A stretch of DNA of 57,505 nucleotides, counting the filler, from Jimgerdemannia flammicorona (Eukaryota): NCBI GenBank assembly GCA_003990765.1. It is 2 parts of 2 records of this genome, joined end to end, with 100 filler letters (N's around TTAATTAATTAA, not from the genome) between each part and the next. Parts side by side here need not be neighbours in the genome. Positions count along the whole stretch, not along the records: positions 1 to 28,711 come from RBNJ01000544.1; 1 more part is not named here. One strand, 5' to 3'. The notes under the pieces were generated by a model. It was given only the letters and a program-made list of their open reading frames with translations. It did not search any database and was not told the origin of the DNA. A program made the translations under genes and the position numbers. This document shows, in pieces, positions 6,125 to 48,400 of the stretch (position 1 is the stretch's first letter; every line of letters starts with the position of its first letter).

Positions 6125-6584
6125 TGTGATGGTATAGCCAGATTCAGAAGAAGAAAATAGGGAACAGACACTTAATCGTACCCAGTCCCAAAATAGTATA
6201 GCCACATAGTTAGCAGTCCTTGATTTCGCCACTTGCTAAATATTTCACAAAGTGCGAGATCGAGCTTCTTGATATAGTATAGTATTTTGCAACTAGTGAA
6301 ATATTTCACAAAGTGTTAAATGACTTATAACCTAGCTACATAACTCATCTCATAGCTAGCAAACTTGTATAAATAACTCAGTATCTTCAAGTGAATAAAT
6401 CTCAGATCGAAATAGTTCAAAATAAAGAGATAGCAAAGGAACTAGTAAGTCTGTGGGCAGATACACTTCGAACTCACCCACCCTTCCCTGCGACTTCAAG
6501 AGACTCTGTGAGAGTCAGAACAGTCAAGTTTTCAAGATACAGAAATCTGACATACTTTCAAGAGTAAGCTTTCACTACATTACA
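6125..6584 (+). repeat. 5' LTR of A1
   Basis: Direct repeat of 12345-12804; TATA-like gtataaata at ~6367 and AATAAA at ~6394. Confidence 0.96.
6223..6321. promoter_or_regulatory. U3 array of four 19-bp palindromes (ATTTCGC-N5-GCGAAAT), putative protein-binding sites
   Basis: Units at 6223, 6242, 6284 and 6303; consensus built from both LTRs; lies just upstream of the TATA-like box. Function is inferred. Confidence 0.65.
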
Positions 6585-6698
6585 ACTTAGTGCCCATTGG
6601 CTGGTGATTCAAGATGAATCCCTCACTTTTAAGCTGAACAATGAACAACTGCCACTACCCAAACAACCATACAAACCAAGCCCCAATACCCAGATAAG

Positions 6699-9600
6699 AT
6701 GGATATGAGATCACCAGTATTCCATGGATATACCTCAGATGAATCAATCATCACCTTCATTGATGATTTCAAGCAGGATGCTACTATAAGGACCCTGACA
6801 GTAGCACAGCAAGTAGCCCTCATGCCCCTCAGCCTACGAGGTCCTGCCAGAGCAGCATTCACAGCCGCAACCCATGCAGAAAATGATACTGATGCTATAC
6901 TGACAGCACAGAAGACCTGGCTCTGAAATACATATTATATAGATGAGATCAAGTAAGCCCTGAAGGATCAGCTCAATACAATATGCCAAGGAATGAGTGA
7001 GGATCCAAACACATTCTATACCAGAATTTGATATCAGATAATCCTTGCAGATTATGCTGCTGCTATCCGAGATCAAGTAGCCGAAGCAACCTTCATGAAA
7101 GGAGTCCATCCAGAAATAGCCATGGCCATCTGCTCATCACCAGTGATTCTGGATCTGCCACAGAAGGTCACCTATGCTCAGTGATACTGGATAGCTAGAC
7201 ATCCACAAGACCATATAATAGAAAGGGTCATGGAAGTCAAAATTGAAGCACCTAAGACAACCAGTGTGATCTCTACCACAATGATCAATTGAAACACACC
7301 TCAGCCAAAAACTACAGAGCAGCAAAAGAACAGTGACCCTATGGAGGAACTTGCCAAAAGGTTTGCCGAAATGACTGCCCACCTGGGAGATGTGGTAAAG
7401 GAAATTCGAGGAAGAGACCACCACCCTGTTCAGAAGTTTGCCACTACCTCAGATAAGAAGAAAGGTAACTGCTACAGCTGTGGAGAAGAAGGCCACTACT
7501 CCTATGAATACATGAGTGAAACCAAGTGCAAGGCTCAACCAAGCAATGCTACATGAAATAAGGAGCAGGCCAATACAATTACCTTTGAAGAAATCAGAGA
7601 ATCCAATGAAGAGGAATGGAAGGCCTATCCTGCTCAGACCACCAAGAAGGATGTTCGCAAAGAACTCTACAAGAGACTGCCAGGAAGACCCAAGAAGAAC
7701 CCAGTGGAAAAGTGGATGGAAACTACCACAGAAAGCCAAGCTGAAGAGATGGACTAAGATATGGAGCTGGAGCAAGCAGTTCAAGATATCATCTGAGAAA
7801 CCACTCTAGCCAGTGAAGGAGAAAAAGAAAAGAAGCTTCGCAAGACCAAGACCTTCAAGTATGATATCTTCAAGGACCTCAGTCAACAAAAGGTCAATGC
7901 AACCTTTGGTCAGCTTACAGAAATCCCAACATTCAGATAGCAAATGAGGTTTGGACTTGCCGAAACAACTAAGGAACAAGGATGGAAGATAACTGAGACC
8001 AATAACATTCAAGAGGACTCAGGAGAAGAAAGTGAGGACAATTGCAAAACCTCTGCTTATGCAACATGCCAAATCAAAGATAGAATCTTTGAAGCCATTA
8101 TTGATATGGGAGCAGGAAGATATCTCCTCAGCAAGAAGGCAGCAGACCACCTAGGTTGGGATGTGGAAGAAGCAACTAAGCTGGTGTTCATCACAGCCAA
8201 TGGTACAAGAGCCATATCTCTGGGAAAGATCCGAGATATTTCTATCAAGATTGGAGGAGCAACTATTCCAGTAGATGTAATTGTAACCAATACCACCAAC
8301 TATGACATCCTCATTGGCAATCAATGGCTTCACAAAGCCAAGGCAGTAATCGATCTCAATGCCCAGAAGATGCAGATCACCTACCGGGAACAGAAGATAC
8401 AAATTCTCATCAATGTCAATAGGGGAGTCCTGCCTGACATGGAGGAAGGGGAGAGCGAGCAAGAGGAAGCTTATATGGTGACTACTCCAAAGAAGAAGAA
8501 CATTGGATGGATAAGTAAAGAAGAATGGTGCAAGAAGATCACAGAAGGTTATGCCCCACAAGGAGTCTGTCCTCATGGGATCAAGATGTACTATATGGAG
8601 CATGTCAATGATTGCTACCAGTGCACTATTGGAATCAAGAAGATCCACCAGGAAAGAAGGCAGAAAGCTCTCAAAAAACAGATCAGGGAAGAAGAAAAGG
8701 AGGAAGATGATGAACCACCAGCCCTCCTGGAGGACAGTGATGATGAAGAAGAAATCAAGGTCAAGATTCAAAAGATCCACCCTGATGCAGTCTTGCCAGA
8801 ATACAAGTCAGAAAATACAGCTAGAATGGACATCACTATAGTAGAAGAGACTGTACTGGAATCCCAGACAATCACCCTACTTGTAACTGGACTGAAGATG
8901 ACCATCCCTAAGGATTATGTTGGGATTCTCAAGACAAGAAGCAGCCTGGCTAGAAGTGAAATCACAATCGAAGGAGGAGTCATCGATTCAGACTCTACTG
9001 GAGAAATTCTACTCATTACTAGGAATCACAATCTTACAATCCTATTTCCAGTCAAGATGAAGGACCGATTGGTACAAATGTTGATCTTTCCAATCCTACA
9101 ACCAAAGATCATAGAAGTTAAGAAGCTGGAGGAAATGAAAAGAGGAAAGAAAGGATTTGGATCCATAGGAAGAGAAGTATTCGCTAGCACCAAGATCACC
9201 AAACTCAAGCATAAGAAGGAGGAAAACACAAGTAAGCACAGCTAAACCATTAGAAATGAATTTCTACTCAAGAAAGAACTCAAGAAAATACTCCACGAAT
9301 TCGAAAATATTCTTGCCACAGATTTCAAGAATATCAAAAGAAAGACCCCACACTACTATCATGAAGTAGATACTGGAAACACTGAACCAATTTATCAGAA
9401 GGCAAGACCTGTCCCACCAGCCTACCAAGAATGGCTCAGAGAAGAAATCAAGCAGATGGAAGAAGCTGGCATCATTAAAGAAGTCAGTAGCCCCTGGTCC
9501 TCACCTGTTGTACTAGTCCCAAAAAAGGGCAGCAAGTCTGGAGAATTTGCACCAAGACTCTGTGTTGACTACAGAAAGCTCAACATGGTTACCAAAAATA

Positions 9601-10669
9601 ATTGCCAACCACTGCCCCTCATCCATGACATCTTCATAACACTGGGAGATAAAGTACAGTACTACAGTACTTTGGACTTATACTCAGGATTCCACCAAAT
9701 CGGACTCACAGATATGACAAGTGAAAAGTCAGCTTTCATCACTCCAGATGGAACCTACATCTATCTATAAATGCCATTTGGAATATATAATGCACCAGCA
9801 AAATCTTCTACTATGATATGGGAAGATGGATAATGGTCTATATTGACAATGTAATCATCTACAGCCAGACATCAGAAAAACACCTGCAGCACATCTGGCA
9901 GATAATGAAAAGACTGAGAAAGCATGGCCTATACATTAAGCCCAAAAAATGCAAATTCACAGAAATCGAGATCTCCTATCCTGGCCACATCATCAACCAA
10001 GATGGAACACACACGGACCCCCTCAAGATACAAGCAGTGGCAGCATACCCAAGACCCACCACTGTTATAGAAGCCCAAGCCTTCATGGGACTTGCCTCCT
10101 ATTATTGCAGATTTATTAGAGGATTTTCTAATATTGCAGGACCAATCTATGAACTTAATAAGAAGGATACCAAGTTCCAGTGGACTGGCAGACAACAAAA
10201 AGCATTTGATGAACTCAAGGTCAGACTGACCCAGGCACCCATCCTCAGAAGACCTGACTGGACTCAAGAATTCATCCTACAGACTGATGCAAGTGCACAA
10301 GGACTAGGAGCAGTTCTAGCTCAAAAGAAAGATAAAGTAGAGTATGTTATCGTATACCTCAGCTGCAGAACCCAAGGAGCTGAAAAAGAATATGAATCCT
10401 ATAAGTTGGAACGCCTCACAGTTATCTGGGCCATAGAAAAGTTCCACTACTACTTGGCTGGAAGACACTTCACCATCCAAATGGATCACTCAGCTCTCAC
10501 CTGGCTACTGACAACCAGACAACCCAAAGGAATCTATACCAGATAGATAATGAAGTTGCAAGCTTATGATGTAACCATTGTACACCGCTCTGGAAGAACC
10601 AATGCCAATGCAGATGCCCTCTCACGGACACCCCGAACTACCTCCAACCAATAAATCAATCATGAATAA
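6699..10669 (+). pseudogene. A1 polyprotein: gag (CCHC knuckle) - AT hook - aspartic protease - CxH..CxxC motif - dUTPase - RT - RNase H
   Basis: ORF fragments 6699, 7341, 7944 and 9456 share one frame; motifs CYSCGEEGHY, IIDMGAG, YDILIGNQWL, RLCVDYRKLN, VYIDNVII, LQTDAS, ADALSR. One small deletion near 9800. Confidence 0.93.
8754..9175 (+). pseudogene. dUTPase domain between protease and RT (A1)
   Basis: KIHPDAVLP, ARMDI, TGL, RSSLA, GGVIDSDSTGEI, DRLVQ, RGKKGFGS represent the five trimeric dUTPase motifs. Confidence 0.93.
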
Positions 10670-11856
10670 GGAGCTCTACTATGGAATTATCACATACCTG
10701 GGACAGTGAAAGATGCCCCAACATCTGGAAGAATAGATACAAATGATTATCAACAGAACATGGAAACAATTCGAAACTGATGGAGAAATACTGAAGAAAG
10801 GAAAACTACTAGTTATACCAGAACACAATAAGGAGCAAGTGATGAAATCAGTATACGAACTTGGTCATCTAGGAGGAACAAATACATATGACAAGGCAAG
10901 AAGAACAATATGGTGGCCAGGGATGGAGGAAGATATCAGACAATTCATCAAGACCTGCGACAAATGCCAGAAACAGAAACAAGACCAACGAAATCGAGCT
11001 CCAGGATCAGCATACATAGAACCAGTACCATTCACCCACATTGCAATAGATGTAATTGGCCCTCTATCCTTAACTTTGACTGGCAACTGATACATCATTG
11101 TCATTGTAGACCTTTTTACAAAATGGATAGAAGCAGGACCCCCTATGGAAGCCAATGTACAGTCAATCGCTAATTTCTTCTACAAGGAAATTATCTGCCA
11201 GTTCAAGACCCCAACACAAGTAACTACAGATAGAGGAACAGAATTTATGAACCAGCTCTTTGAGGTTCTCTACAAGAAGTACAAGATCCAGCACATTCAG
11301 ACCACAGCCTATCACCCCTAAGGAAATAGACAAGCAGAAAAGACTAACAAGACCCTCAAGAATGTTATTGCCAAGATCTGTGATAACTATGAAAACTGAG
11401 ATTACTATCTGCCAATAGCATTATCTGCTCTCCAGGATATCTAATCACAAAGTACCCACTTTACCTCTTAAGAAATGCTGTTTAGAGAAGAATGTTCTCA
11501 GGAAACCCTATCATCCAATAGAGATGCTGTATGGAAACATGTAGACATGGAAATATGGAGACTACACCAAATCAGGAAGAAGGCTGAGGATAACATAACC
11601 AAGGTGCAGATACTACAATGGAGGAATGTGGAAAAGACCCACAAACTCTTGGAGATTATCAAGATAGGAGACAAAGTTCTAGTATATTGGAATATAGTAG
11701 AAGCTTCATGGTCACGAAGACTGGAGTCCAAGTGGGAAGGACCTTACCTGGTACAAAATATAAAAGGGACCACCTTTTGGCTACAAAAACCCTCAGGCAC
11801 AAAAAATCCCCACCACCATTCACTGAAACTAACTCAAGAAATATCATGGCCAGTAA
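10662..11856 (+). pseudogene. A1 integrase as a separate ORF (HHCC zinc finger, DDE core, GPY/F)
   Basis: MNKELYYGII...GHLG...WWPGM...CDKCQ...IAIDVIGP...TDRGTEF...KWEGPY; ATG overlaps the RNase H stop (CATGAATAA). Confidence 0.9.
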
Positions 11857-12307
11857 CAAAAGTACTGCAATGGCACTCAAGATCACTAGCACTGCCCAAA
11901 GAGCCATCAAGAGACAATGGCATACCACTGAGCCTCTGACTATAGAGGAGTCTTATGATAGTATCCAAAGTATTGTACAGACTCATCTCTCTCAAATCTC
12001 ATACTTCAAGATCTATCAGCATTGAAACGAATTTCAAGAGTACTTCAAACTTGGCCAAGTACTCAACCAAGACCCAGAAATGACCAAAGAAAATTGGATC
12101 ACAGAATGCCAGCTCTCCTATTCCCAGATCACCATTGCTAAGAGAATCCACAAGCTATTCCAAGAGGATGAACCAGCACTAGCCCACCTGTAAGGAGTAA
12201 CTCCCTCAGACTTCAACCAAGTCAGATGACACTATTGGGAAACAGTAATGCAACAAATCGCACAATACAAGACCATACAGACCATTGAAGCTTGGGAGTT
12301 TAAATAG
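11846..12307 (+). pseudogene. A1 accessory ORF3, unknown protein (~153 aa, interrupted by TGA/TAA stops)
   Basis: Colinear with the nearly intact ORF 45007-45468 of copy 2. Confidence 0.8.
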
Positions 12308-12344
12308 ATACTTCAAGGATGAGATCATCTATTCAGGAGAAAGT

Positions 12345-12804
12345 TGTGATGGTATAGCCAGATTTGGAAGAAGGAAATAGGGAACAGACACTTGATCGCA
12401 CCCAGTCCCAAAGTAGTATAGCTACATAGTTAGCAGTCCTCGATTTCACCACTTGCTAAATATTTCGCAAAGTGCAAGATCAAGCTTCTCGATATAGTAT
12501 AGCATTTCGCAACTGGCAAAATATTTTGCAAAGTGTTAAATGACTCATAACCTAGCTATATAACTCATCTTATAGCTAGCAAACTTGTATAAATAACCCA
12601 GTATCTTCAAGTGAATAAACCTTAGATCGAAATAGTTCAAAGCAAAGAGATAGCAAAGGAACTAGTAAGTCTGTGGACAGATATACTTCAAACTCACCCA
12701 CCCTCCTCTGCAACTTCAAGAGACTCTGTGAGAGTCAGAACAGTCAAGTTTTCAAGATACAGAAATCCGACATACTTTCAAGAGTAGGCTTCTGCTATGT
12801 TACA
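12345..12804 (+). repeat. 3' LTR of A1
   Basis: Direct repeat of 6125-6584, preceded by purine tract aggagaaag. Confidence 0.96.
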
Positions 12805-18507: not shown

Positions 18508-21022
18508 ATTATATTTAAATTTAATAATCTTTAGCTTATTAAATATATCTTATTAAAATAAATCTAATATAATAAAAATATTAAATATAGTTAAGTTATT
18601 ATATTTTAAATTTAAAATAGAAATTAAAAAATAAATTTGATATTAATTCAATTTAAAAAGATATTAATTTAAATTAAATCAAATTTAATAAAATCTCAGT
18701 TTAATTTGAACTTAATTTTATTTATTTAGAAATACTAATTATAATTACTAATAATTTAAAACTAATGAAATAGTTAAAATTATATATCCATATAAAGTTA
18801 ATATCTAAATATAATAAATTTATAATAGTTAACATAAAGATGAGAAATATAAAGATATATTAATAATTGGAGTTTTTTAATTTTTTTAGTTAATAAATAT
18901 TAAGTTCTTATATAATAAATTAATAACTTAAAAAATATATCTTTTTAATTATTTTTAATTTTCAAGTTAGTTATAAAATATACTTAATAATAATAACTGA
19001 AGATATTATTACTAAACTACTAAAATAAGTAAAAATAAAATATAAAATAATATATCTTAATATTTTATTATTAGAATACTCTTATTTTACTAAGTATTTC
19101 TAATTATTTTAAGTTATTTATATAAGTTTAAAGTATAAAGTTTAAGCTATTAATTTTAATATTAAGTTAAATTTAAACTATTTATTATATTATATATAAA
19201 TTTAAATATATTTTATTAATTAAAATTATTATAATTAAAAATATAAGTATTAAAATAGATAGTCATTATATATTATTTATACTTTTAAGATAAATATATA
19301 TAATTACTGTGATAAACCAGAATGTATCATCTAAATTATAATTTAGTCAGATAATATAAATATATAGCATCATAACCAGATATAGCAACTATTGCTGTGG
19401 AAAACTATATAAATAGCCAGACTACTAGATAAGATATACCTATGCTGAACATCTGTGCTAAACTAGCATACTTGTGCTAAACCAGCACACCTATGCCAAA
19501 CCAGTATACTTGCTATAGATAGCAATCTATAATTAGCAATATAGTAATCAGATAGTAATTACAACTATATAAAATATCCTAGAAATAAGAGTGAATAAAC
19601 CTCTGTCTGAATTGAAGTACAAACTAAAGAACTAAAGATTGATCATTGGTCTCCTTATTCTTACTCTTGTCTACTTTTCAATATAAAGCCTTAGTTTACT
19701 TACCAGATAAGCCTGAAGATTTGCTGTCAAAGTTCAAAAAAGATCTTCACTGCCTTTTGAAGAGAAATCTACTGCTTATAGAATAAGCCATTATATTTTT
19801 AGTTCACTTGCCGGATAAGCCTGAAGAAGTCTGAGTTATCCACATTTCTGGAGAGCCTTAAGAAATCTTGCTACAAAGCCAGTCTGTTGATGCAACTTCA
19901 CAGTGAACTTATTCATGCAAATGAAGCCATTCTTGATGTAACTTTGCCCAAAAGCCCACCATCCTAGTTATTTCCCAGAAGTCTGCTGATTTAGAAAGAG
20001 TCTGCAATATCTGAGTTATTTATCTGTTTCCAGTAAACCCAATTACTACCAGTATAATTTCCAGTGAGCCTGATCTGCACCATCCTCTATTCCCAGTAAG
20101 CCACCAATTCAGAAGAATTTATACTAAATTGATTTATCTACCAAATTGCCAGATTGTCCTGCATAAGGAACCCACTGCACTACACAGAGATCATCACACT
20201 ATACAAAGAGATCTTTATGCAGAAATCACATTTTTTGGAGAATGCCCATACTACACAAATTGCTGCTACATCCAGAGAACCATCCCAATAGGAAAATTGA
20301 TATATAAATCACTTGCAGATATTCAGTTTTAACTATTATACCACTAAACACCAAGAATATTTTATTGCTTTTAACAAAGTAACTGGGGACTCAAGTAAAA
20401 TATATCAACTCCCAATCTTGTAATTTGTCTCTATTGAGTCAGATATGTTATATTTGGAGGCTCAACTCGGAAGATCTCAAAATTGATGTGACTTTTTAGC
20501 TTATAAGAACCTATAGTCAGACTGAATACATTTAATACAACTCCAATCTCTGTCACCACAGGAGAACTAGTCATCACCAGCATTTAGACAGGAAGAGAAG
20601 TAATCACCTCAAGACTTACCAATTACATAGTATCAGAAGGATCTCAATCAGAACTAGAAGCTAGTATAACCCAAAATCTCCAATCAGATCAATCAGACAA
20701 TACAGGTGGCCCTGTTGGAAATTTTGAAGAACTTTCCCAAGAACTAGAAGATCTTATTACACAAGTCCTAAATTCTGTAGTTAGACATCCCACAGTAGCC
20801 CCACCAATCTTACTCATTAAATCTTTACTATCAGTCCTTGCAGAATTGGAAATAGCTTCTTCAAGAATACCTAGACTCATTCCACTTCATCCAAGGTCCA
20901 GAAAACCATCCTTAAGATACCCAAGCACCCACATTTCTATTGACAATTTAGAAAGTAAATCAGAGTCAGAATTCGAATCAGAACCCAGACCAGAACCAGA
21001 ATCAGAAGGAAGTGATGATAAA

Positions 21023-27473: not shown

Positions 27474-27971
27474 CAACTACCTTCAGACTCTTATCCTCAG
27501 TTTATTTCAATCACTGCCAGTTCCCCTACCCCAATTCTAAGAAGTCAATGGAAATATCCTCTAGAAAATTCAGATTCATTAAGAGAATCTTGTTCTGATC
27601 AGACAATGTTACAGGTCCATCAACTTCAAGCCTATTATACAATCAGAGAATAATTGCAGAACCTTTCAGCCCCAGAACAAATATACATCAGAAATACTAC
27701 AGGACTATCAAGGAGAGATATCACTACTGCAGACAGGCTCCACACCCTTTATAAACAAAACCCTGTAGCTCTGATACAAGCACAATTCTCCTGGTGTGAT
27801 GTATAAGAAATGAACCTAGACATCTACCTAAGCATTATTAATGCTGTTGAAATTCTATTCCCAGAAGAAGAAGAAGAACCCCTGGAATAGAGTAACCATG
27901 GTATAGATGATGAGGATGATAGAATGAGTATTGATGCAGAAGTTGCTTATTCATACTGGGATGATGACTAA
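27457..27971 (+). pseudogene. C accessory ORF3, homologue of A ORF3 with an acidic tail
   Basis: QLQAYYTIRE.L...LSRRDITTADRLHTLYKQNPVAL aligns by eye with A ORF3 EFQEYFKLGQVL...LSHSQITIAKRIHKLFREDQVAI; one frameshift near 27600. Confidence 0.7.
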
Positions 27972-28139: not shown

Positions 28140-28208
28140 AGGTACACTTGTGCTGAACCAGCACATCTATGCTGAACTAGCACACCTGTACTGAACCAGC
28201 ACACTTGT
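28140..28208. repeat. 19-bp tandem palindromic repeats in the C LTR U3 (also ~19431-19512)
   Basis: Unit cagcacacctgtgctgaac containing CAGCACA-cc-TGTGCTG, ~3.6 copies. Confidence 0.85.
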
Positions 28209-28711
28209 CATAGATAGCAATCTATAATTAGCAATATAGTAACCAGATAGCAACCACAACTATATAAAATACCCCAGAGATAAGAGTGAATAAACCTCAG
28301 TCTGAATTGAAGTACAAACCAAAGAAGCCTCTAAAGATTGAACATTGGTCTCCTTATTCCCACTCTGGTCCACTTTCTGATACAAAGCCTTGGTTTGCTT
28401 GCCAGATAAGCCTGAAGATTTGCTGCCAAAGTTCAAGGAAGAACTTCACTGCCTTTTGAAGAGAAATCTGCCACTTAAGGAATAAGCCATTATGTTTTTG
28501 ATTTGCTTGCCAGATAAGCCTAAAGAAGTCCGAGTTAACCTTGCCACAAAGCCAGTCTGTTGACGCAACTCCGTAGTGAACTTGTTCATGCAAACAAAGC
28601 CAGTCTTGATGTAACTTTGCCCAAGAAGCCTGCCAATTCAGGAAGAGTCCGCAATATCCGAGTTATTCGTCCATTCCCAGTGAACCCAATTGTCTTTTTT
28701 TTTTTTTTTTT

Positions 28712-28811
28712 NNNNNNNNNNNNNNNNNNNNNNNNNNNNNNNNNNNNNNNNNNNNTTAATTAATTAANNNNNNNNNNNNNNNNNNNNNNNNNNNNNNNNN
28801 NNNNNNNNNNN
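28712..28811. other. Assembly gap with artificial six-frame-stop linker TTAATTAATTAA (28756-28767)
   Basis: 100 nt of N enclosing the linker. Confidence 0.97.
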
Positions 28812-33604: not shown

Positions 33605-33964
33605 GGCATCCTCTAGTACTGTCTGGTAATATAAGGTCTGAGTCAAGGGTTTACTCAACTATATACTTGTATCATATTGAGGTATATTAGATATAATATT
33701 TCTCTATCTATATACACAGACAATAATATCACTCTAATAATATTTTACATTCTAGAAAAGAAAGGCCCAACTTAGAAGGATAGTAGTAGTATCTAGTATA
33801 ACCTTATCTATGGTTTTGAGGTCCTGTTTGTAGTCAATATGGCTGTCCTATTTCAACTACATAACCTCTATAATACTATCATCTTTAAGAAGAGCTCAGA
33901 TACTATAGTTATTATACTGATAACAGACTCATCAAGGTCTGAGACCAGTGGGTAGAGTAGTTTT

Positions 33965-34260
33965 ATAAAGGTTAGACAGTCTTTTGTAAAGACTAAATAG
34001 TCTTTTATGAAGGTTAGACAGTCTTTTGCAGTTAGGCACCTCTTTTTATAATACTAGTTTTAGCTTTTTACCAGGCTTTACTAGTCTCTTAGTTCTGCTT
34101 TATAGTGCTATAAATATGGTATTGCAATATAGGGCCAGAGTATCTGTGGGGTCTGAATCTATACTAGAGTCTGATCTATACTAGAGTCTGATTTGTACTG
34201 AAGTTTGATCTATGCTAGAATCTGATCTATATTAGAGTCTGATCTGTATCAGAGTCTGAC
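33965..34260. repeat. Short tandem arrays: ~21-bp x3 (33965-34030) and 17-bp x6 (34150-34260)
   Basis: aaggttagacagtcttttg repeats; ctagagtctgatctata repeats. Confidence 0.8.
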
Positions 34261-34984
34261 TATTTGAAGTTGCTTCTTATAGTGGATCATTGGGCTACAA
34301 ATTCTACATACTCTCTCTAACCTAGACTTCTACATCAACTTGTAGCTTGAGGTCACTTCTTACTGCTGATAGAGGACTACAAATTTTATATACTCCCTCT
34401 ACTAACCCTACTGACCTCCACCCTACTTGAGCTGGCAAGGAGTTATAAATACTGATATATTCTCTTTATCTACTATCTTATACCCTGAGCTAAACTCTCT
34501 CTTTTTTTTTTTTTTTTTTTTTTAAAATAATATATAAAAAATAATTTATTTCTAACTCTTTTTGTTTAATACTACAGAACTCACTTAATTTTAGTAGCCT
34601 ATACCCCACTAAGACTTTAGATATATATAGGCCTAAATTGTCTTAATATTTAGTATATATCTCTTAGAGAAAATGAGATCTACTCTACCAGAGAACACCC
34701 ACTCAACTAGAGCACTGGTGATAGAAATGGTCAGATAGTTTTAAACTATACCATATAGGCTAGAAAAGTCTATTTGATATATCTGTAGTCACACACCCCA
34801 TGGAGTAGAATGGTGATTAGAATGATAGATAAAATTGACCCAATCTCACCAACTATCTATAGAAAGACAACTCACCTTCTACTAGTTGAGCACCTCTATA
34901 CTCTCCAGTAGAATCATATAGTTACTAATAAGATAAATAGTTAGTTTATCTATTAACAGTAGTTCTTCTACTAATAGCTCTCTC

Positions 34985-37739: not shown

Positions 37740-37890
37740 AAAATAATACTATAGTAAAAGTAGATAATTATAGCTCAACTCAATAGTATATAGTGTGACA
37801 GTACAGCCAAATTCAGAAGAAGGAAATAGGGAATAGACACTTGATCGCACCCATTCCAAAGTAGTATAGTATTATAGTTAGCAGTCCTCA

Positions 37891-37989
37891 ATTTCGACAT
37901 TGTCTGAATTCTTAGACATTATCCAAATCAAATACCCCAATTTAGTATAGCATTTAGATATTGTCCAAATGTTTCGACAAAGTCCAAAT
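37891..37989. promoter_or_regulatory. U3 array of four 19-bp palindromes (ATTTnGAC-N3-GTCnAAAT) in A2
   Basis: Units at 37891, 37910, 37952 and 37971, same spacing as the A1 array; repeated in the 3' LTR. Confidence 0.65.
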
Positions 37990-38364
37990 GACTCATTTAT
38001 TACTTAGCCACTCTCTCATAGCTAGCAAACTTGTATAAATAACCCAGTATCTTTGAGTAAATAAACCTCAGATCGAAATAGTTCAAAGCAAAGAGATAGC
38101 AAAGGAACTAATAAGTCTGCAGGCAGATACACTTCAAACTCACCCACCCTCCCCTACAACTTCAAGAGACTCTGCGAGAGTCAGAATGGTCAAGTTTTCA
38201 AGATACAGAAATCTGACGTACTTTCAAGAGTAAGCGTCCACTACATTACAACTTAGTGCCCATTGGCTGGTGATTCAAGACGAATCCCTCACTTTCAAGC
38301 TGAACAACGAACAACCACCACTATCCGAACAACCATACAAACCGAGCCCCAATACTCAGACAAG

Positions 38365-41300
38365 ATGGATATGAGACCGCCAGTATTCCATGGATATACC
38401 TCAGATGAATCAATCATCACCTTCATTGATGATTTTGAGCAGTATGCTGCTGTAAGGACTCTGACAGCAGCACAGCAAGTAGCCCTCATGCCCTTCAGCC
38501 TATGAGGCCCTGCAAGAGCAGTATTCACAGCCACAACCCATGCAGGAAATGATGCCGATGTTGTACTAACAGCACAGAAGACCTGGCTCTGAAACACATA
38601 TTATATAGATGAGATCAAGCAAGCCCTAAAGGATCAGCTCAACACAATGTGCCAAGGAATGAGTGAGGATCCAAACACATTCTATATCAGAATTCGATAT
38701 ATCAGATAATCCTTGCAAATTATGCTGCTGCTATCCGAGATCAAGTAGCTGAAGCAACCTTCATGAAAGGAGTCCATCCAGAAATAGCCATGGCCATCCG
38801 CTCATCACCAGTGATTCTGGATCTGCCACAGAAGGTCACCTATGCTCAGAGATACTGGATAGCCAGACACTCATAAGACCATACAATAGAAAGAGTTACA
38901 GGAGTCAGAATCGAGGCATCCAAGGCAACCAGTGTGATCCCCACCACAATGATCAATCGAAACACACCTCAGCCAAAAGCTACAGAGCAGCAAAAGAACA
39001 GTAACCCTATGGAGAAACTTGCCAAAAGGTTTGCTGAAATGACTGCCCACCTGGGAGATGTGGTAAAGGAAATCTGAGGAAGAGATCGCTGCCCTGTTCA
39101 GAAGTTTGCCGCCACCTCAGACAAGAAGAAAGGTACCTACTACAGCTGCGGAGAAGAAGGCCACTACTCCTATAAATGTATGAGTGAAACCAAACGCAAG
39201 GCTCAACCAAGCAATGCCACATGAAACAAGGAGCAGGTATAAGAGGGTTACTTTTTAGGGTAATCGTTACGTAGTTCTGGAAGGGTTTTCTGGATATTCT
39301 GGATGTTCTGGAAGACCGTTTTCTTATGGTCAAGATCAATTTCATATGGAGTACGTCCTCTACGCTTATTGATTTCAAGATCGGGTTGACGTCTCAACCA
39401 AAGTCCTTTTCCGGACTAGTTCTGGATGTTCAGGATGTTCCATATTTCAGGAAGTTCAAGAAACTAAGACCAGCTCAGTTGAATCGGCGTATCGCTGCAG
39501 ACAATACCCAATTAGGAAATTTCGTGACGGGGTTAGGAGTAGGACCTAACAGAGAGTGGATTTACTTAAGAGTGGTTTGTGGGTTATTAAATAGGTTTAT
39601 TCGCTATTCATGATATTGCTATACTAGGAGTATTTGTATGAAGGGATATTGTAGAGAAGTATTCAGGAATGTTCTTGTATGTTTTTGTCTGAGATTCTGA
39701 GGTCTGGAGGAGGGGGTATTTATACTAGTGAGGGGCTATCTGGACTATGCTGAATATGGATATAGCACTAAGTGCCTTGCTGAGTCGGAATGCAGTCACG
39801 TAGTACAAGTGTAATCTGACATGTCAAGAGATCGTCTGGCTGCTGAGTCAGTTCACAGTCATGTCGTACAAGGCTAATCTATCTATGCTATGACTGCTAG
39901 ACTATTTATAGATTTAGGCACTGTCTGGTTAGTCCTTGATGACATCACTATTGATGACATCATCACTGGCAAAGTCTGAGCAGTTTTCTGACATCATCAG
40001 TTTTCAAGATGTCGTCACGTCTATCTCTTGTAAGATTAAGGCTGTCCTTGGTGGTGGTGGTTGTACAAGGATAACAGGTCTTGGTTCTCTTTTTTTTTGG
40101 TCTGCTGGTGTATTTGCGAGGACTGGCCATTCTCGTCTAGGGCGAGGGCTCTCAATGTCGCGGCTGGGGGTTCGAACCTCTCAGAAATGATATTTTCTGT
40201 AATCCGAGGTAATTTCTAGTAGTAATATCTGTCACGTGGATGGCTTGAGATTGGTTTCGACGTTGTCAGCTTTCTTGAGTTCAGATGAAGCGTCCGTCAC
40301 TCTCCAACGGAGGTGATACAGATAAAGCGAACAGAGTTGTTCAAATGTATTTTACTTCTGCTAAGTAATGAGGTCTTGTATAGTCATGGTATATCTTGGT
40401 CTTGAGTTGATAAGTGCAGTTCGTGAACCTTTTGATGGGTGAGATAGGGTTCTTCTTATCTTGATTTGAGTTTGGTACTTTCAGTTTCTTTTGTAATAGT
40501 ACAGTACACCAAACTAGCTATAGCGGTTCAGAGTCAGTCTTATGGTTGTAGTACTTCTTCTAGTATTCTTGTATCTTGGCAGTGGGTTCTCGTGCTTGCT
40601 GGCGTATTTCGTGTAACCAGATGATCTCTTGTTTTGTAGTCTCGCATGTGGTTTCCAAATTAGTTCTGAGGATACCATGCGATTTTGGTGGCTTAGAGGT
40701 TGTACGCTTACAGCAGGCCAATACAATCACCTTTGAAGAAATCGGAGAATCTGATAAAGAGGAATGGGAGGCCTATCCTGCTCAGACCACTAAGAAGGAT
40801 GTTCGCAAAGAACCCTACAAGAGACCACCAGGAAGACCCAAGAAGAACTCAGTGGAAAAGCAGATGGAAACTGCCACAGAAAGTCAAGCCGAAGAGATGG
40901 ACCAGGATATCAAGCTGGAGCAAGCAGTTCAAGATATCATCCGAGGAACCACTCCAGCCAGTGAAGGAGAAAAAGAAAAGAAGCTTCACAAGACCAAGAC
41001 CTTCAAGTATGATATCTTCAAGGATCTCAGTCAACAAAAGGTCAATGCAACCTTTAGTCAGCTCGCAGAAATCCCAACATTCAGATAGCAAATGAGGTTT
41101 GGACTTGCCGAAACAACCAAGAAACAAGGATGGAAGATAACCGAGGCCAATAATGTTTAAGAGGACTCAGGAGAAGAAAGTGAGGACAATTGCAAAACCT
41201 CTACTTATGCAACATGCCAAATTGAGGATTGAGTCTTTGAAGCCATCATTGATACAGAAGCAGGAGGATGTCTCCTCAGTAAGAAGGCAGCAGACCGCCT

Positions 41301-43839
41301 AGGTTGGGATGTGGAAGAAGCAACCAAGCTAGTATTCATTACAGCTGATGGCACAAGAGCCACACCTCTGGGAAAGATCTGAGATGTTCCCATCAAGATT
41401 GGAGGAGCAACAATCCCAGTAGATATAATCGTAACCAATGCCACCAACTATGACATCCTCATCAGCAATCAATGGCTTCATAAAGCCAAGGCAGTAATCG
41501 ATCTCAATGCCCAGAAGATGCAAATCACCTACCAGGGACAGAAGATACGAATTCCCATCAACGTCAACAAAGGAGTCCTGCCCAATATGGAGGAAGAAGA
41601 GAGCGAGCAAGAGGAAGCTTATATGGTGACTACCCCAAAGAAGAAGAAAGTCAGATGGATGAGTGAAGAAGAATGGTGCAAGAAGATTGCAGAAGGCTAT
41701 ACCATACAAGGAGTCTGTCCTCATGGAATCAAGATGTACTGTATGGAGCATGTCAATGATTGCTACCAGTGCACCATCGGAACCAAGAAGATCTACTAGG
41801 AAAGAAGCCAGAAAGCTCTCGAAAAACAGATCAGGGAAGAAGAGAAGGAGGAAGATGATGAACCACCAGCCCTCCTGGAGGACAGTGATGATGAAGAAGA
41901 AATCAAGGTCAAGATTTGAAAGATCCACCCTGACGCAGTCTTGCCAGAATACAAGTCAGAAAATGCAGCCAGAATGGACATCACTACAGTAGAAGAAACT
42001 GTACTCGAACCCCAGACAACTACTCTACTCGCAACTGGACTAGAGATGACCATCCCAAAGGATCATGTCGGGATTCTCAAGACAAGAAGCAGCCTGGCTA
42101 GAAGTAAAATCACAATCGAAGGAGGAGTCATTGATTCAGACTATACTGGAGAAATTCTACTCATTGCTAGGAACCACAATCCTACAATTCCATTCCCAGT
42201 CAAGAAGAAGGACCGATTGGCACAGATGTTGATCTTCCCAATCATATAGCCAAGGATCATAGAAGTCAAGAATCTGGAGGAAATGAAAAGAGGAAAGAAA
42301 GGATTCAGATCCACAGGAAGAGGAGTATTCGCCAGCACCAAGATCACTGAACTCGAGCACAAGAAGGAGGAAAACACAAGCAAGCACAGTTACACCATTG
42401 GAGATGAATTCCCACTCAAGGAGGAACTCAAGAAAATACTCCACAAATTCGAGGATGTCCTCACCACAGATTTCAAGGATATTAAGGGAAAGACCCCACA
42501 CTACTATCACGAGGTAGATACTGGAGACACTGAACCAATTTATCAGAAGGCAAGACCTGTCCCGCCAGCCTACTGAGAATAACTCAGAGAAGAAATCAAG
42601 CAGATGGAAGAAGCCGGTATCATCAAAGAAGCCAGCAGCCCCTGGTCTTCACCAGTTGTACTAGCCCCAAAAAAAGGAAGCAAACCTGGAGAATTTGCTC
42701 CAAGGCTCTGTGTTGACTACAGAAAGCTCAATACAGTCACCAAGAAGGATCGCCAACCACTGCCACTCATCAGTGACATCCTTATAATACTGGGAGATGA
42801 AGCACAGTACTACAGCACCTTGGACTTATACTCAGAGTTCCACCAAATCAGACTCACAGAAGTGGCAAGTGAAAAGTCAGCCTTCATCACCCCAGATGGA
42901 ACCTACATCTACCTATGAATGCCATTCAGAATGTGCAATGCACCAGCAAGCTTTTAGCAAATGATGAACAAAATCTTCCGCTATAATATGGGAAGATGGA
43001 TGATGGTCTATGTTGATGATGTAATCATCTACAGCAAGATGGCCGAGGAACATCTGCAGCACATACAGCAGATAATGGAGAGACTAAGACAACATGGCCT
43101 TTATATCAAACCCAAGAAGTGCAAGTTTGCGGAAATCGAGATCTCCTATCTTGGCCATATCATCAATCGAGATGGAACACACACAGACCCCCTCAAAATA
43201 TAAGCAGTAGCAGCATACCCAAGGCCCACTACCATCACAGAAGCCCAAGCCTTCATGGGACTTGCCTCCTACTATCGCAGATTCATTAGAGGATTCTCCA
43301 ACATCGCAGGTCCAATCTACGAACTCAACAAGAAGGATACCAAGTTCCAGTGGACTGGCAGACAACAAAAAGTATTTGACAAACTCAAGGTCAGACTAAC
43401 TCAGGCACCCATCCTCAGACAGCCCAATTGGACCCAGGAATTTATCCTTCAGACAGATGCAAGTGCACAAGGACTAGGAGCAGTCCTAGCTCAAAAAGAA
43501 GATAAAAAAGAGTATGTCATTGCATATCTTAGCCACGGAACCCGAGGGGCTGAAAAAGAATATGAGTCCTACAAGTTGGAATGCCTTGCAGTCATCTGGG
43601 CTATAGAAAAGTTCCACTACTATCTGGCTAGAAGACACTTCACCATCCAGACAGACCACTCAGCTCTCACCTGGCTACTGACAACTGGATAACCCAAGGG
43701 AATCTATACCAGATGGATAATGAAGTTACAAGCCTATGATGTAACTATCGTACACTGCCCTGGAAGAACAAATTCCAATACAGATGCTCTCTCACAGACA
43801 CCTTGAACCACCTCCAACCAACAAATCAATCATGAATAA
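38365..43839 (+). pseudogene. A2 gag-PR-dUTPase-RT-RNase H polyprotein (interrupted 39238-40712)
   Basis: Same motifs as A1; VYVDDVII intact; dUTPase ~41900-42320 with GGVIDSDYTGEI. Confidence 0.93.
39238..40712 (-). mobile_element. Solo LTR, short variant of family D (1475 bp)
   Basis: Perfect 5-bp TSD GCAGG (39233-39237 and 40713-40717); termini tataag...cttaca; removing it restores the A1 sequence. Confidence 0.93.
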
Positions 43840-45017
43840 GGAGCTCTACTATGGAATTATCATATACCTGGGACAGCGAAAGATGCCCCAACATCTGGAA
43901 GAATAGACACAAATGATTATCAACAGGACATGGAAACAATTCGAAACTGATGGAGAAACACTGAAGAAAGGAAAACTACTAGTTATACCAGAACACAAGA
44001 AGGAGCAAGTGATGAAATCAGTACATGAACTTGGCCATCTAGGAGGAATGAATATATACGACAAGGCAAGAAGAACAATATAGTGGCCAGGGATGGAGGA
44101 AGATATCAGACAATTTGTCAAGACATGCGACAAATACCAGAAACAGAAACAAGACCAACAGAATCAAGCCCCAGGATCAGTACATATAGAACCAGTACCA
44201 TTTGCCCATATAGCAATGGATGTAATTGGCCCTCTACCCTTGACCCTGACTGGTAACCAATACATCATTGTCATCGTAGACCTTTTTATGAAGTGGATAG
44301 AAGCAGAACCCCTCAAGGAAGCCAATGCATAGTCAATCGCCGATTCTTCCACAAGGAAATCATCTGCCGGTTCAAGACTCCAACACAAGTAACTACAGAT
44401 AGAGGAACAGAATTCATGAACCAGCTCTTTGAGGTTCTCTATAAGAAGTACAAGATCCAGCACATTCAGACCACAGCCTATCACCCTCAAGGAAACGGAC
44501 AAGTAGAAAGGACTAACAAAACCCTCAAGAATGTTATCGCCAAGATCTGTGATAACTACGAGAACTGGGATCACTATCTGCCAATAGCATTATCTGGGAT
44601 ATCTGATCACAAAGCACCCACTTTACCCCTTGAGAAATGCTGTTCAGAGAAGAATATTCTCAAGGAACCCTATCATCCAATGGAGATACTGTATGGAAAC
44701 ATGTGGACATGGAAATATGGAGACTACACCAAATCAGAAAGAAGGCTGAGGATTATATAACCAAGGTACAGACACTACAATGGAGGAATGTGGAAAAGAC
44801 CCACAAGCCTTTGGAGATTATCAAGATAGGAGACAAAGTCCTAGTATATCGGAATATGGTAGAAGCTTTATGGTCACGAAAACTGGAGCCCAAGTGGGAA
44901 GGACCTTACTTTATGCAAGATATAAAAGAGACCACCTTTTGGCTACAAAAACCCTCAGGCACAATAATCCCTACCACCATTCACCAAAGCTGACTCAAGA
45001 AATATCATGGCCAGTAA
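43832..45017 (+). pseudogene. A2 integrase as a separate ORF
   Basis: Same CATGAATAA overlap and frame change as A1; DVIGP, TDRGTEF, YHPQGNGQVER, KWEGPY. Confidence 0.9.
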
Positions 45018-45468
45018 CAAAAGTACTGTGATGGCACTCAAGATCACTAGTGCTATCCAAAGAGCTATTGAAAGACAATGGTACACCACCGAGCCTCCGA
45101 CCATAGAGCCATACTATGAGGATATTCAGAGTATTGTGCAGACTCATCTCTCTCAGATCTTGCACTTTAGAGCCTATCAGTATTGTGCAGAATTCCAAGA
45201 GTACTTCAAGCTTGGACAGGTGCTCAATCAGGATCCAGTAAAGACCAAGGAGGACTGGATTGCCAAGTGTCAACTCTCTCACTCACAGATCACTATTGCC
45301 AAAAGGATCCACAAGTTATTCCGAGAAGATCAAGTAGCGATAGACCACCTGAGAGGAGTAACCCCTACCGACTTCGAGAAAGTGAGAAGACATTATTGGG
45401 AAACAGTCATGCAGCAAATTGCACAGTACAAGACCATATAGACTGTTGAAGCCTGGGAGTTTGAATAG
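45007..45468 (+). CDS. A2 accessory ORF3, unknown protein (144 aa open; 153 aa if TAG 45439 is reverted to CAG as in A1)
   Basis: ORF track 45007-45441; ATG overlaps the integrase stop; synonymous divergence from the A1 copy. Confidence 0.8.
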
Positions 45469-48400
45469 ATGCTTCAAGGATGAGACCATCTATTCAGGAG
45501 GAAGTTGTGATGGTACAGCCAAATTCGGAAGAAGGAAATAGGAAATAGACACTTGATCACACCCATCCCAAAGTAGTATAGCATTATAGTTAGCAGTCCT
45601 CGATTTCGACATTGTCTGAATTCTTAGATATTATCCAAATCGAATACCCCGATTTAGTATAGTATTTAGACATTGTCCAAATGTTTTAACAAAGTCCAAA
45701 TAACTCATTTATTACTTAGCCACCCTCTCATAGCTAGCAAACTTGTATAAATAACCCAGTATCTTTGAGTGAATAAACCTTAGATTGAAATAGTTCAAAG
45801 CAAAGAGATAGCAAAGGAACTAGTAAGTCTGCAGGCAGATATACTTCGAACTCACCCACCCTCCCCTACAACTTCAAGAGACTCTGCGAGAGTCAGAACG
45901 GTCAAGTTTTCAAGATACAGAAATCTGATGTACTTTCAAGAGTAAGTGTTCACTATATTACAATAGTAAATCCAAATAGGTTTGGATGGCCAAGAGAGTC
46001 AAAACTATAACAATAGCAATATAACTTAAAATATTATATTAATGTCTATATTTATCTAAATAAAATAAAAAATATATTATTCAAAAGCTAAGATACTATA
46101 TTATTAATAGTAAAAAATTGGATTTTATTATATTTATATTGAAGCTATAATATAATTATATATTAACAATAACTAAATATTATTATAGTTTTAATTGCTA
46201 CTATATATTTTGATTATAACTTACTTGGCTTTCTCAATATAATACTACTCCTAGCTCTGATCTTTGTGATATTGTAGCTTTAAGTATAGATTCAATATTG
46301 TTTTGAAAAAGAGGATGAGTTTTGTAGAAATTTCTCTTTTTTGGAAGAGGTAACTACTATATTAACATATCTATACTAATTGAGTATATAGTGGTATCTA
46401 TTTTGAAGTAGTATTTTCTAAGCTTACTCAGAGTAATCTTTACAGTATCTCTCTAATCTGAGCTAAACTGAAAATTATTACTACTCTCTAGTCTTTCCTC
46501 AAGCTTATTCTCTAGTTAATCAATTAAAAGATTATATACTAGTATTGTAGAGCTTATTTTTAGAGTAGTTTATTTGACTATATTTTTCATATAATTATCA
46601 AAATACTAGTAGTTAAAAATAATGAATTGTTATATTACTATATAGAGGCAGACAAAACAAATATAGAGCTAAAATAATCATTACTTACTTCTAAAACTCT
46701 AATAATATTCCTTAGTATATTTTACTTACTTTCATCTATAGTCTCACTCTGCATTTTTCTGTCAGCAATAACTATAGAATCTATTAGCTTTTTTTTTTTT
46801 TAAAAAAAAATATTCTATTTTAAAATTAATTAACAATTCTTCGTCATCCAAAACAATTTACTTCAGCCAATTGAAAAAAGAATATATACCATAGCAAACT
46901 CTAGTATATATTGAATTATTATAAATATTATATTTTAATATATATAAATATTTAATATCAGCTCTTTTGGAACTAAACTGATTGCCCTATACTGTGCAGT
47001 AAATTTATCTTATCATTGTAAAGATGATCAGACCAATATAACTAGTTTATACAGCTTGGAAACAATACTCAAGATTCATTTACTTCTGGATATTTTGTCT
47101 ATATATATAAGATAATTCTGAACTACAAGATTCAGTATATATGTAGATCTGATAATATATATAATAGTTTTCTATACTAAAGGCTATATTTTCCTATTGA
47201 AGATTAGCTACTAAATTTTGAGTTATTTATAGCATTATCTGTTATAATAGCCAAAATCTGTACTTGAAATTTTCAGTTAGCAAATTTATATAAAAATAAA
47301 TAATTATTAAAATCTATTTTATTTTAAAACTTTTCTCAAAATGCTAACCAGATAGCAAGCCATTCTTTTTACCTTAGTTGTAATCTCAAGCTCTCAGATA
47401 CAACTAATAAAAGCATCTGTAATATTTTCTCTATAGTTAAAATAAGAGAACTCTATAATTAATTGGGTAAACTATTCTCTGACTATCAAGAAAAAATATC
47501 ACAATTTCAAACTGCAAGGAGAAAAAGACTCACTCAGTTCTAGTGACCCAGGCTTAAAAATCACTTATCTCAACAAACTATAACTTAATAAATTAGCTAA
47601 AAAATATCCTCTCTTTGCTATCTCTATATGACTATCTAAAGGAGAATCCAAGAACTTTAAAAAAGACTTTTCCAAAGTTGACAGCTATATTAGACCATTA
47701 CTTTAGAAATTCTGAGATATATTTCTAAAGAAACTACCAAAAGGTCTACCATCCAAAAGAGCAATTGACCATGTAATCAAGACCATCCCAGATGCCAAGC
47801 TAGCCTTCAAGTCAATCTACTATATATCTTTTAGGAAAATTGATGTACTCAAGAAAGAAATTGATAAACTCCTAGAATAAAGATTCATTAGACCTAGTAT
47901 ATCATATAGTACATCAGTTCTCTTTATTGTCAAGAAAGAAAAAGACCTATAAATATATATTGACTACTGAGACCTCAATGAATAGACCATCAAGAACTAT
48001 TGTCTACTATCTCAAATTGATAAAATATTTAATAAGCTTATCAACTCACAATTCATAAACTCTTTTGACCTATGAAATAGCTACCAGCAAATTGCCATAA
48101 AAGAAGAAAATATCTACAAAACTGTCTTCTGAACTTGCTATGGATATTTCAAGTTCTTGGTTATATCTTTTAACTTAACTAATACTTCTATAATCTTTCA
48201 GATACTGATAAATATCATCCTATACCTATATCTAGATAAATTTGTTGTTGTTTATATTGATGACATTCTAGTCTTTATTAAAACCCTAGAGAAATATCTT
48301 GAACATCTTGAATTAGTACTACTGAAGCTTTGAGAAAACTAACTCTTTGTAAAACTCAGCAAATACAAATTTCTTCTAAAGGAAATTCAATTTCTTAGAT

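Follow-up and report, generated by a model that had tools for sequence, protein, structure and literature searches.

What reads the regular dyad array in the U3 region of a fungal LTR retrotransposon, and why does the whole array differ in concert between two of its subfamilies? The question is raised by a stretch of 57,505 nucleotides, filler included, of the Jimgerdemannia flammicorona genome (hereafter the window). As the window is made of two contigs, C544 and C545, put together over N filler at 28712-28811, the two elements compared here, A1 and A2, need not lie close to each other in the genome. Both are decayed copies of family A, A1 at 6125-12804 and A2 at 37794-45962. Protease, dUTPase, RT, RNase H and integrase are recognized by Pfam, the integrase core being matched in the A2 copy. 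With its PR-RT-RNase H-IN order, TG...CA LTRs and target duplication, family A is a dUTPase-bearing Ty3/gypsy LTR retrotransposon. It is also a high-copy family, since a 14-base anchor from its U3 has 1254 exact matches in the 231-Mb genome. The 88 Zn2Cys6 matches in this genome mark it as fungal.

The coding parts and LTRs of A1 and A2 given here lie on the plus strand. The 5′ LTR of A1 (6125-6584) runs from TG to CA within a 4-base target duplication, ATAT, and a broken pol (protease to integrase, by Pfam) occupies 7941-11845. Between integrase and the 3′ LTR lies ORF3, which has 153 codons and is interrupted by stops in A1 (11846-12307) and is open for 144 codons in A2 (45007-45468). The 3′ LTR of A1 (12345-12804) carries its array at 12443-12541. 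In A2, flanked by the target duplication ATAG, the LTRs lie at 37794-38250 and 45506-45962, with arrays at 37891-37989 and 45603-45701, respectively. ORF3 would hardly be an env gene: with 153 residues and a compact helical model, its product does not appear to be a large membrane glycoprotein. The two LTRs of an element differ by transitions alone, 40 in A1 and 28 in A2; about half of these are at CpG and many at CpA. A2 also carries, in reverse orientation, an inserted solo LTR from another family (about 39239-40711); its U3 has TGATGTCA and TGACTCA-type motifs and no regular dyad array. A different element in the window carries two tandem arrays, 21 bases x 3.2 (33961-34027) and 17 bases x 6.6 (34151-34263).

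The array of the A1 5′ LTR consists of four imperfect 19-bp palindromes starting at 6223, 6242, 6284 and 6303, that is, two pairs (6223-6260 and 6284-6321) separated by a spacer. A fifth dyad (6257-6275) lies in the spacer and overlaps unit 2. Directly 3′ of the array is a TGACTCA-type site (6321-6327, plus strand), which we take to be AP-1/Gcn4-like; it is kept in A1, A2 and A3 and is a variant in A4. A TATA box, its function inferred, follows 46 bases past the array (6368-6375, plus strand), with an AATAAA 3′ of it (6394-6399, plus strand). The initial annotation described the same 99-bp geometry in A2, and all four LTRs of the window (arrays from 6223, 12443, 37891 and 45603) agree on it. 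The dyad symmetry exceeds chance, the best-four score giving p = 0.0005-0.009 over 2000 shuffles of each of the four window arrays. Units from 39 copies of A1 have, on average, 5.5-6.1 of the 8 possible pairs, against a flank background of 2.0 with a maximum of 4.7. The array is thus a real feature, and the mechanism discussed below is plausible.

The two motifs quoted in the initial annotation are idealised. While the four 19-bp units of A1 stand, ATTTCGC-N5-GCGAAAT is literally found in none of the 8 A1 units of the window, and in only 2 of 8, both of them unit 3, when CpG decay is allowed. Likewise, ATTTnGAC-N3-GTCnAAAT, said to be present in all four A2 units, has a literal match in 1 of 8. 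Position 5 is non-pairing in most units. The change from A1 to A2 is best described as a shift of the inner C..G pair by one base inward on each side, with the outer T/A tracts kept at a distance of 19 bases. The earlier argument that deamination does not explain this change holds, because many of the differences are transversions: the two window copies differ by 30 of them in the 150-base bin that covers the 3′ array, compared with 0-4 in each gag-pol bin. The flanking LTR sequence, described as almost the same, is so upstream in U3 (2 fixed differences in 98 bases), but not in the approximately 30 bases just downstream in most A2 copies.

Across the genome, family A falls into four subfamilies that differ mainly in half-site spacing. 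The inner C-to-G gap is N5 in A1, N3 in A2, N4 in A3 and N4+N5 in A4, these classes comprising 45, 44, 25 and 12 arrays, respectively; these numbers are raised by matches that overlap, and three mosaic copies are counted under A1. A3 and A4 were retrieved by a divergent-ORF3 search together with a downstream anchor. Such differences in spacing would be hard for one host dimer to read. Unit number was compared in 43 LTRs of A1 and 56 of A2, which had been collected through the anchor, through complete elements or through an ORF3 search. The A1 LTRs have four units nearly always, and the A2 LTRs mostly five, with a range of four to seven. The four-unit, 133-base A2 form of the window is therefore a minority (8 of 56), one unit more being present in 37 of 56; array lengths vary from 133 to 180 in A2, and deletions reduce A1 arrays to as little as 81. 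At five loci, the arrays are of yet another variant, in which the right halves are of TGTAGA type, as they are in a metagenome relative.

If the units bind a protein, the element itself may encode it. The initial annotation named ORF3 as a possible candidate and called it divergent between A1 and A2, and the divergence is confirmed. Between the two window copies, the peaks of transversions are confined to ORF3 and the arrays. Among 14 A1 and 16 A2 full elements, 50 columns carry fixed transversions. Codons 35-134 of ORF3 account for 20 of these, the two arrays for 28 and the upstream U3 regions for one each, while gag-pol has none, so that no coding region other than ORF3 shows such differences in this set. 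The same codons of ORF3 hold 51 fixed differences in 300 bases, compared with 2/102, 3/97 and 2/98 on either side. Of the codons with transversions, 11 change the amino acid and 7 are silent, so ORF3 is still under constraint. The aligned part of ORF3 is free of stops in 22 of 48 A2, 2 of 45 A1 and 1 of 26 A3 copies, and there are metagenome homologues with an open reading frame as well. The change is also uneven between subfamilies. With A3 as outgroup (pairwise values, first 10 copies per class), transversions in the ORF3 core amount to about 5.2% on the A2 branch versus 2.2% on the A1 branch, whereas the upstream U3 is even (1.3% and 1.8%, respectively). This indicates that protein and array were sped up on the same branch, that of A2. 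A double crossover was considered for the conserved stretch between ORF3 and the array; it is unneeded, as faster change on the A2 branch suffices.

The rest of the element follows a different history. In clustering, gag, protease, RT, RNase H and integrase group by body lineage, not by array. A1 arrays are found on a main and an alternative gag-pol body (10 and 4 of 14 elements), and A2 arrays are likewise found on both (12 and 4 of 16). Since each array type occurs on two bodies, ORF3 and U3 form a cassette moved by recombination. Most A3 and A4 copies have the main body. Mosaic gag-pol bodies with several breakpoints were seen at ten loci and show frequent recombination between distant lineages.

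Does palindrome type then travel with the ORF3 allele? In most copies it does. Among 93 copies with A1- or A2-type ORF3, 42 pure A1 alleles are on A1 arrays and 45 pure A2 alleles on A2 arrays; two of the remainder have no readable array and four are mosaic, all four on A2 arrays. The predicted linkage thus holds apart from partial reassortment within ORF3, in 4 of 49 A2-array copies. As ORF3 adjoins the array (it stops about 135 bases short of it, and the two parts compared are about 200 bases from each other), linkage is expected and the test has low power; the family copies, moreover, are not independent of each other. One of the mosaics has an A1-type helix-turn-helix (HTH), is A1-type through residue 92 and turns A2-type from residue 112. 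Residue 92, the only difference between A1 and A2 in the recognition helix, was tried as a specificity switch and rejected, since it varies independently of array type. The residues found with every A2 array are T121, or what it decays to, and K125, and no others. Residues 121 and 125 are also the diagnostic sites nearest to the array, and crossovers number zero in the last 220 bases versus two or three in the preceding 270, which is not significant. The pattern fits a specificity patch outside the HTH, at 121-125. The bacterial protein KorB has such a specificity patch outside its HTH.

The fold predicted for ORF3 agrees with a DNA-binding role. Residues 50-144, modelled from a 37-row alignment with a pLDDT of 90.1 and a pTM of 0.80, form a long helix, an HTH at about 81-105 and three more helices, while the full-length model is poor (pLDDT 54). 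The diverged part of ORF3 is thus predicted to fold as an HTH-like domain. R100, in the second helix of the HTH, is kept in 90% or more of the distant homologues. When the 50-144 model was compared with 48,161 chains, no chain reached Z 5, and six of the top 50 were ParB-family DNA-binding domains. VirB (Z 4.5, 73 aligned residues, 3.5 Å) tied for first with an unrelated photosystem subunit, and was accompanied by P1 ParB (3.8), KorB (3.8 and 3.5), SopB (3.7) and Spo0J (3.1). These ParB/KorB-type matches lie at Z 3.1-4.5 with the confident model and at 4.4-5.7 with the low-confidence one. Foldseek on PDB gave nothing at E<=0.001 for the ORF3 model. The top match among viral structures was DUF3102 (probability 0.87, TM 0.54, E 0.47), which also accounts for 10 of the 30 named Atlas hits; proteins of this family in turn give weak matches to the ParB HTH model. 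Homology to DUF3102 (PF11300) nevertheless found no support, with no Pfam hit, no candidate in G000 and no significance in profile comparison (hhalign probability 0.5%, E 0.13, from a thin profile of 8 sequences).

At the sequence level, ORF3 has no match in Pfam, PHROG or PDB, and no sequence or profile match to the ParB/KorB-type HTH. Sequence searches returned unnamed metagenome proteins only (8, 5, and 11 for the distant P0183 group); one of the 5 is a spurious repeat protein. No relatives were found in viral contigs, and a single phage hit is weak (E 3). The protein p82 of phage Mx8 was considered and dropped, its match being too weak. Homologues of the P0183 group have long acidic tails that contain W, F and L, and family A ORF3 ends in a short acidic-aromatic motif. 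Such ends resemble acidic activation domains.

A local profile search of the retrieved loci also detected weak ORF3 homologues in LTR families other than A, at 10-27 bits against at most 2.1 for reversed controls. The homologue in family D (27582-27971 of the window, plus strand; 9.6 bits versus a reversed-control maximum of 2.1) has an acidic tail by eye, and the U3 of that family has an array of 19-base repeats with a dyad of its own (28143-28215, second copy at 19454-19512). Dyad arrays of their own are found in families C and D and in one metagenome relative. In family C, repeats of roughly 35 bases, each with its own 18-base dyad, lie about 370-500 bases past the ORF3 homologue (two loci). 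The metagenome relative, whose ORF3 is 63% identical, has near-identical 18-base tandem units (L195:3596-3685), cut by the contig end. No dyad array was found downstream of the ORF3 homologue in family B.

Comparison with known systems may provide some clues regarding the function of ORF3. One close parallel is that of the VANC proteins, anti-silencing proteins of the Arabidopsis VANDAL (Mutator-like) transposons for which demethylation has been shown, according to the available parts of PMC5735166. As in family A, where tandem target motifs diverge with the protein apart from the mosaic exceptions, an element-encoded protein and its tandem-repeat target motifs diverge together between subfamilies, several units at once (PMC5735166, accessible sections). 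VANDALs, on the other hand, are plant DNA transposons with large DUF1985/DUF287 proteins and short non-palindromic motifs (same sections of PMC5735166), whereas family A is an LTR retrotransposon with a 153-residue HTH-like protein lacking DUF1985 and DUF287, with its dyads in U3 and with array CpGs that show no protection. A second comparison is with Tas/Bel-1 of foamy viruses, likewise a divergent protein encoded by an accessory gene near the 3′ LTR; it combines a DNA-binding domain with an acidic activation domain and acts on the LTR (PMC3798896, as far as its accessible text goes). It differs in coming from a vertebrate retrovirus, and no sequence match between it and ORF3 was found. To our knowledge, no regular palindrome array exists in foamy viruses.

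Spm TnpA and other transposase-derived activators resemble the proposed role of ORF3 in their sequence-specific activation of cognate copies; these systems are DNA transposons, and the words retrotransposon and LTR are absent from the text (bioRxiv 10.64898/2026.08.24.746577). The ParB/SopB/KorB/VirB domains and DUF3102 share with the predicted fold of ORF3 an HTH plus the following helices. By the ends of the ranges only, the base-reading R167 of VirB falls near K99/R100 of ORF3 and F190 near the variable 121-125 patch (PMC3905869, in the parts available). ORF3 differs from the ParB types in its Z below 5 on the confident model, in having no significant sequence or profile match to them and in lacking the ParB CTPase domain. 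Plant LTR retrotransposons are comparable in that U3 varies among subfamilies and an extra sense ORF may precede the 3′ LTR; in these plant elements, host factors are the readers of the U3 motifs, and the extra ORFs are described as being of unknown function (PMC10794571 and PMC11728184, accessible sections). For LTR retrotransposons in general, the latter source describes extra-ORF functions as largely unknown in its available text (PMC11728184). By analogy, family A may work like VANC, the TnpA-type activators and Tas, while belonging to none of these groups. In the literature covered by our search, which includes few subscription papers, we found no case of an LTR retrotransposon that encodes a protein binding and regulating its own U3, and no anti-silencing extra ORF in such elements. 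What is added here to the initial annotation is the HTH-like fold predicted for ORF3 and the divergence in two islands.

The co-change of array and ORF3 suggests that each subfamily makes a private activator of its promoter, and we give about even chances to ORF3 being a subfamily-specific activator of its own LTR that works like VANC or Tas. That ORF3 binds the array, as first proposed by comparison with transactivators of complex retroviruses, is favored by the fixed coding transversions found in ORF3 only and by the HTH-like fold; against this, the fold matches are weak, the linkage test had low power, mosaic alleles exist, CpGs of the array show no protection, CANNTG motifs are present in every array type and no dyad array was found for the family B homologue. 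All probabilities given here are rough, and the explanations overlap slightly. In a competing explanation, which we regard as unlikely although it deserves serious weight, the units are enhancer sites for host factors, such as bHLH proteins or other dimers, and A2 reflects a factor switch or an escape from CpG methylation, ORF3 being merely adjacent. The host-type TGACTCA site directly after the array, the existence of mosaic ORF3 alleles and the commonness of subfamily-specific U3 regions in plant LTR elements (PMC10794571, in its accessible part) are all consistent with host control. CANNTG motifs, too, occur in all four array types (averages of 1.4, 0.8, 2.2 and 2.3 per array in A1-A4), but in A1 and A2 they are off the dyad axes. 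Host control also leaves unexplained the HTH-like fold of ORF3, its being the sole coding region with fixed differences, and its faster change on the branch leading to A2. Methylation escape, offered as an alternative at the outset, agrees with the loss of CpGs in A2, where one CpG column was scored against six in the A1 units, the A2 figure being low as repeat number blurs the alignment. The CpGs of the array, however, are no better kept than flanking ones (0.14-0.37 in A1 units versus 0.33-0.48 at six neighbouring sites), so that no methylation footprint was seen over the array. A literature search on host methylation yielded nothing relevant. Pieces of a cytosine methyltransferase gene, presumably Dnmt2-like, are present at two loci of the same genome, which has two further matches.

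Even if ORF3 binds the array, it could do so as a repressor that controls copy number or confers an immunity of the phage kind, or it could serve nuclear import or integration as a tether. The co-divergence and the fold apply equally to these roles, and the nearest folds include repressors and partition proteins. Nevertheless, the acidic-aromatic tails of the homologues and the position of the array upstream of the TATA box, rather than over it, suit an activator better, and we consider repression or tethering rather improbable. Slightly more doubtful still is neutral minisatellite turnover, in which quasi-palindrome correction would make changes symmetric and template slippage would copy them through the array. 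Unit number does vary freely, from 133 to 180 in length in A2 and down to 81 in A1, and the metagenome relative has near-identical tandem copies. Yet symmetry, unit length and the position before the TATA box persist in four subfamilies and in other families despite turnover of the sequence, the change affects the units to the left and to the right of the spacer alike, and position 5 has stayed mostly asymmetric where correction would have removed the asymmetry. Finally, the array might act as an RNA structure in the 3′-terminal part of the transcript, to which ORF3 might bind in a Rev- or Tat-like manner. All 4 window arrays fold better than their shuffles (z -2.7 to -5.0), but self-complementarity is to be expected of any series of dyads, the predicted structures are not the same in the four arrays and most units have the non-pairing position 5; we therefore hold this to be very improbable.

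Under the preferred reading, that of ORF3 as an activator, ORF3 and the U3 array would constitute one regulatory cassette. ORF3, as a small HTH protein, would bind the dyads as dimers just upstream of the host bZIP-type site and the TATA box, and would turn on the LTR in cooperation with a bZIP factor of the host. Through its short acidic-aromatic tail, it would most likely activate or de-silence the LTR of its own element. Tandem duplication may spread a new unit through the array, to which the protein would then adapt. In this way, each subfamily could acquire a private key and lock and with them a private feedback loop, and recombination may carry the cassette onto different gag-pol bodies. 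It is conceivable, if somewhat short of an even chance, that a bacterial or phage-like HTH transcription factor in a fungal Ty3/gypsy clade binds an operator array in its own U3, in swappable cassettes like the lambdoid immunity regions and in types that do not cross-talk. Sequence-specific self-activation encoded by the element has already been shown for plant DNA transposons and complex retroviruses. In family A, there would be four natural protein-site pairs with different half-site spacing, plus natural mosaics and, if the interpretation is true, these may serve as small orthogonal regulators for fungi.
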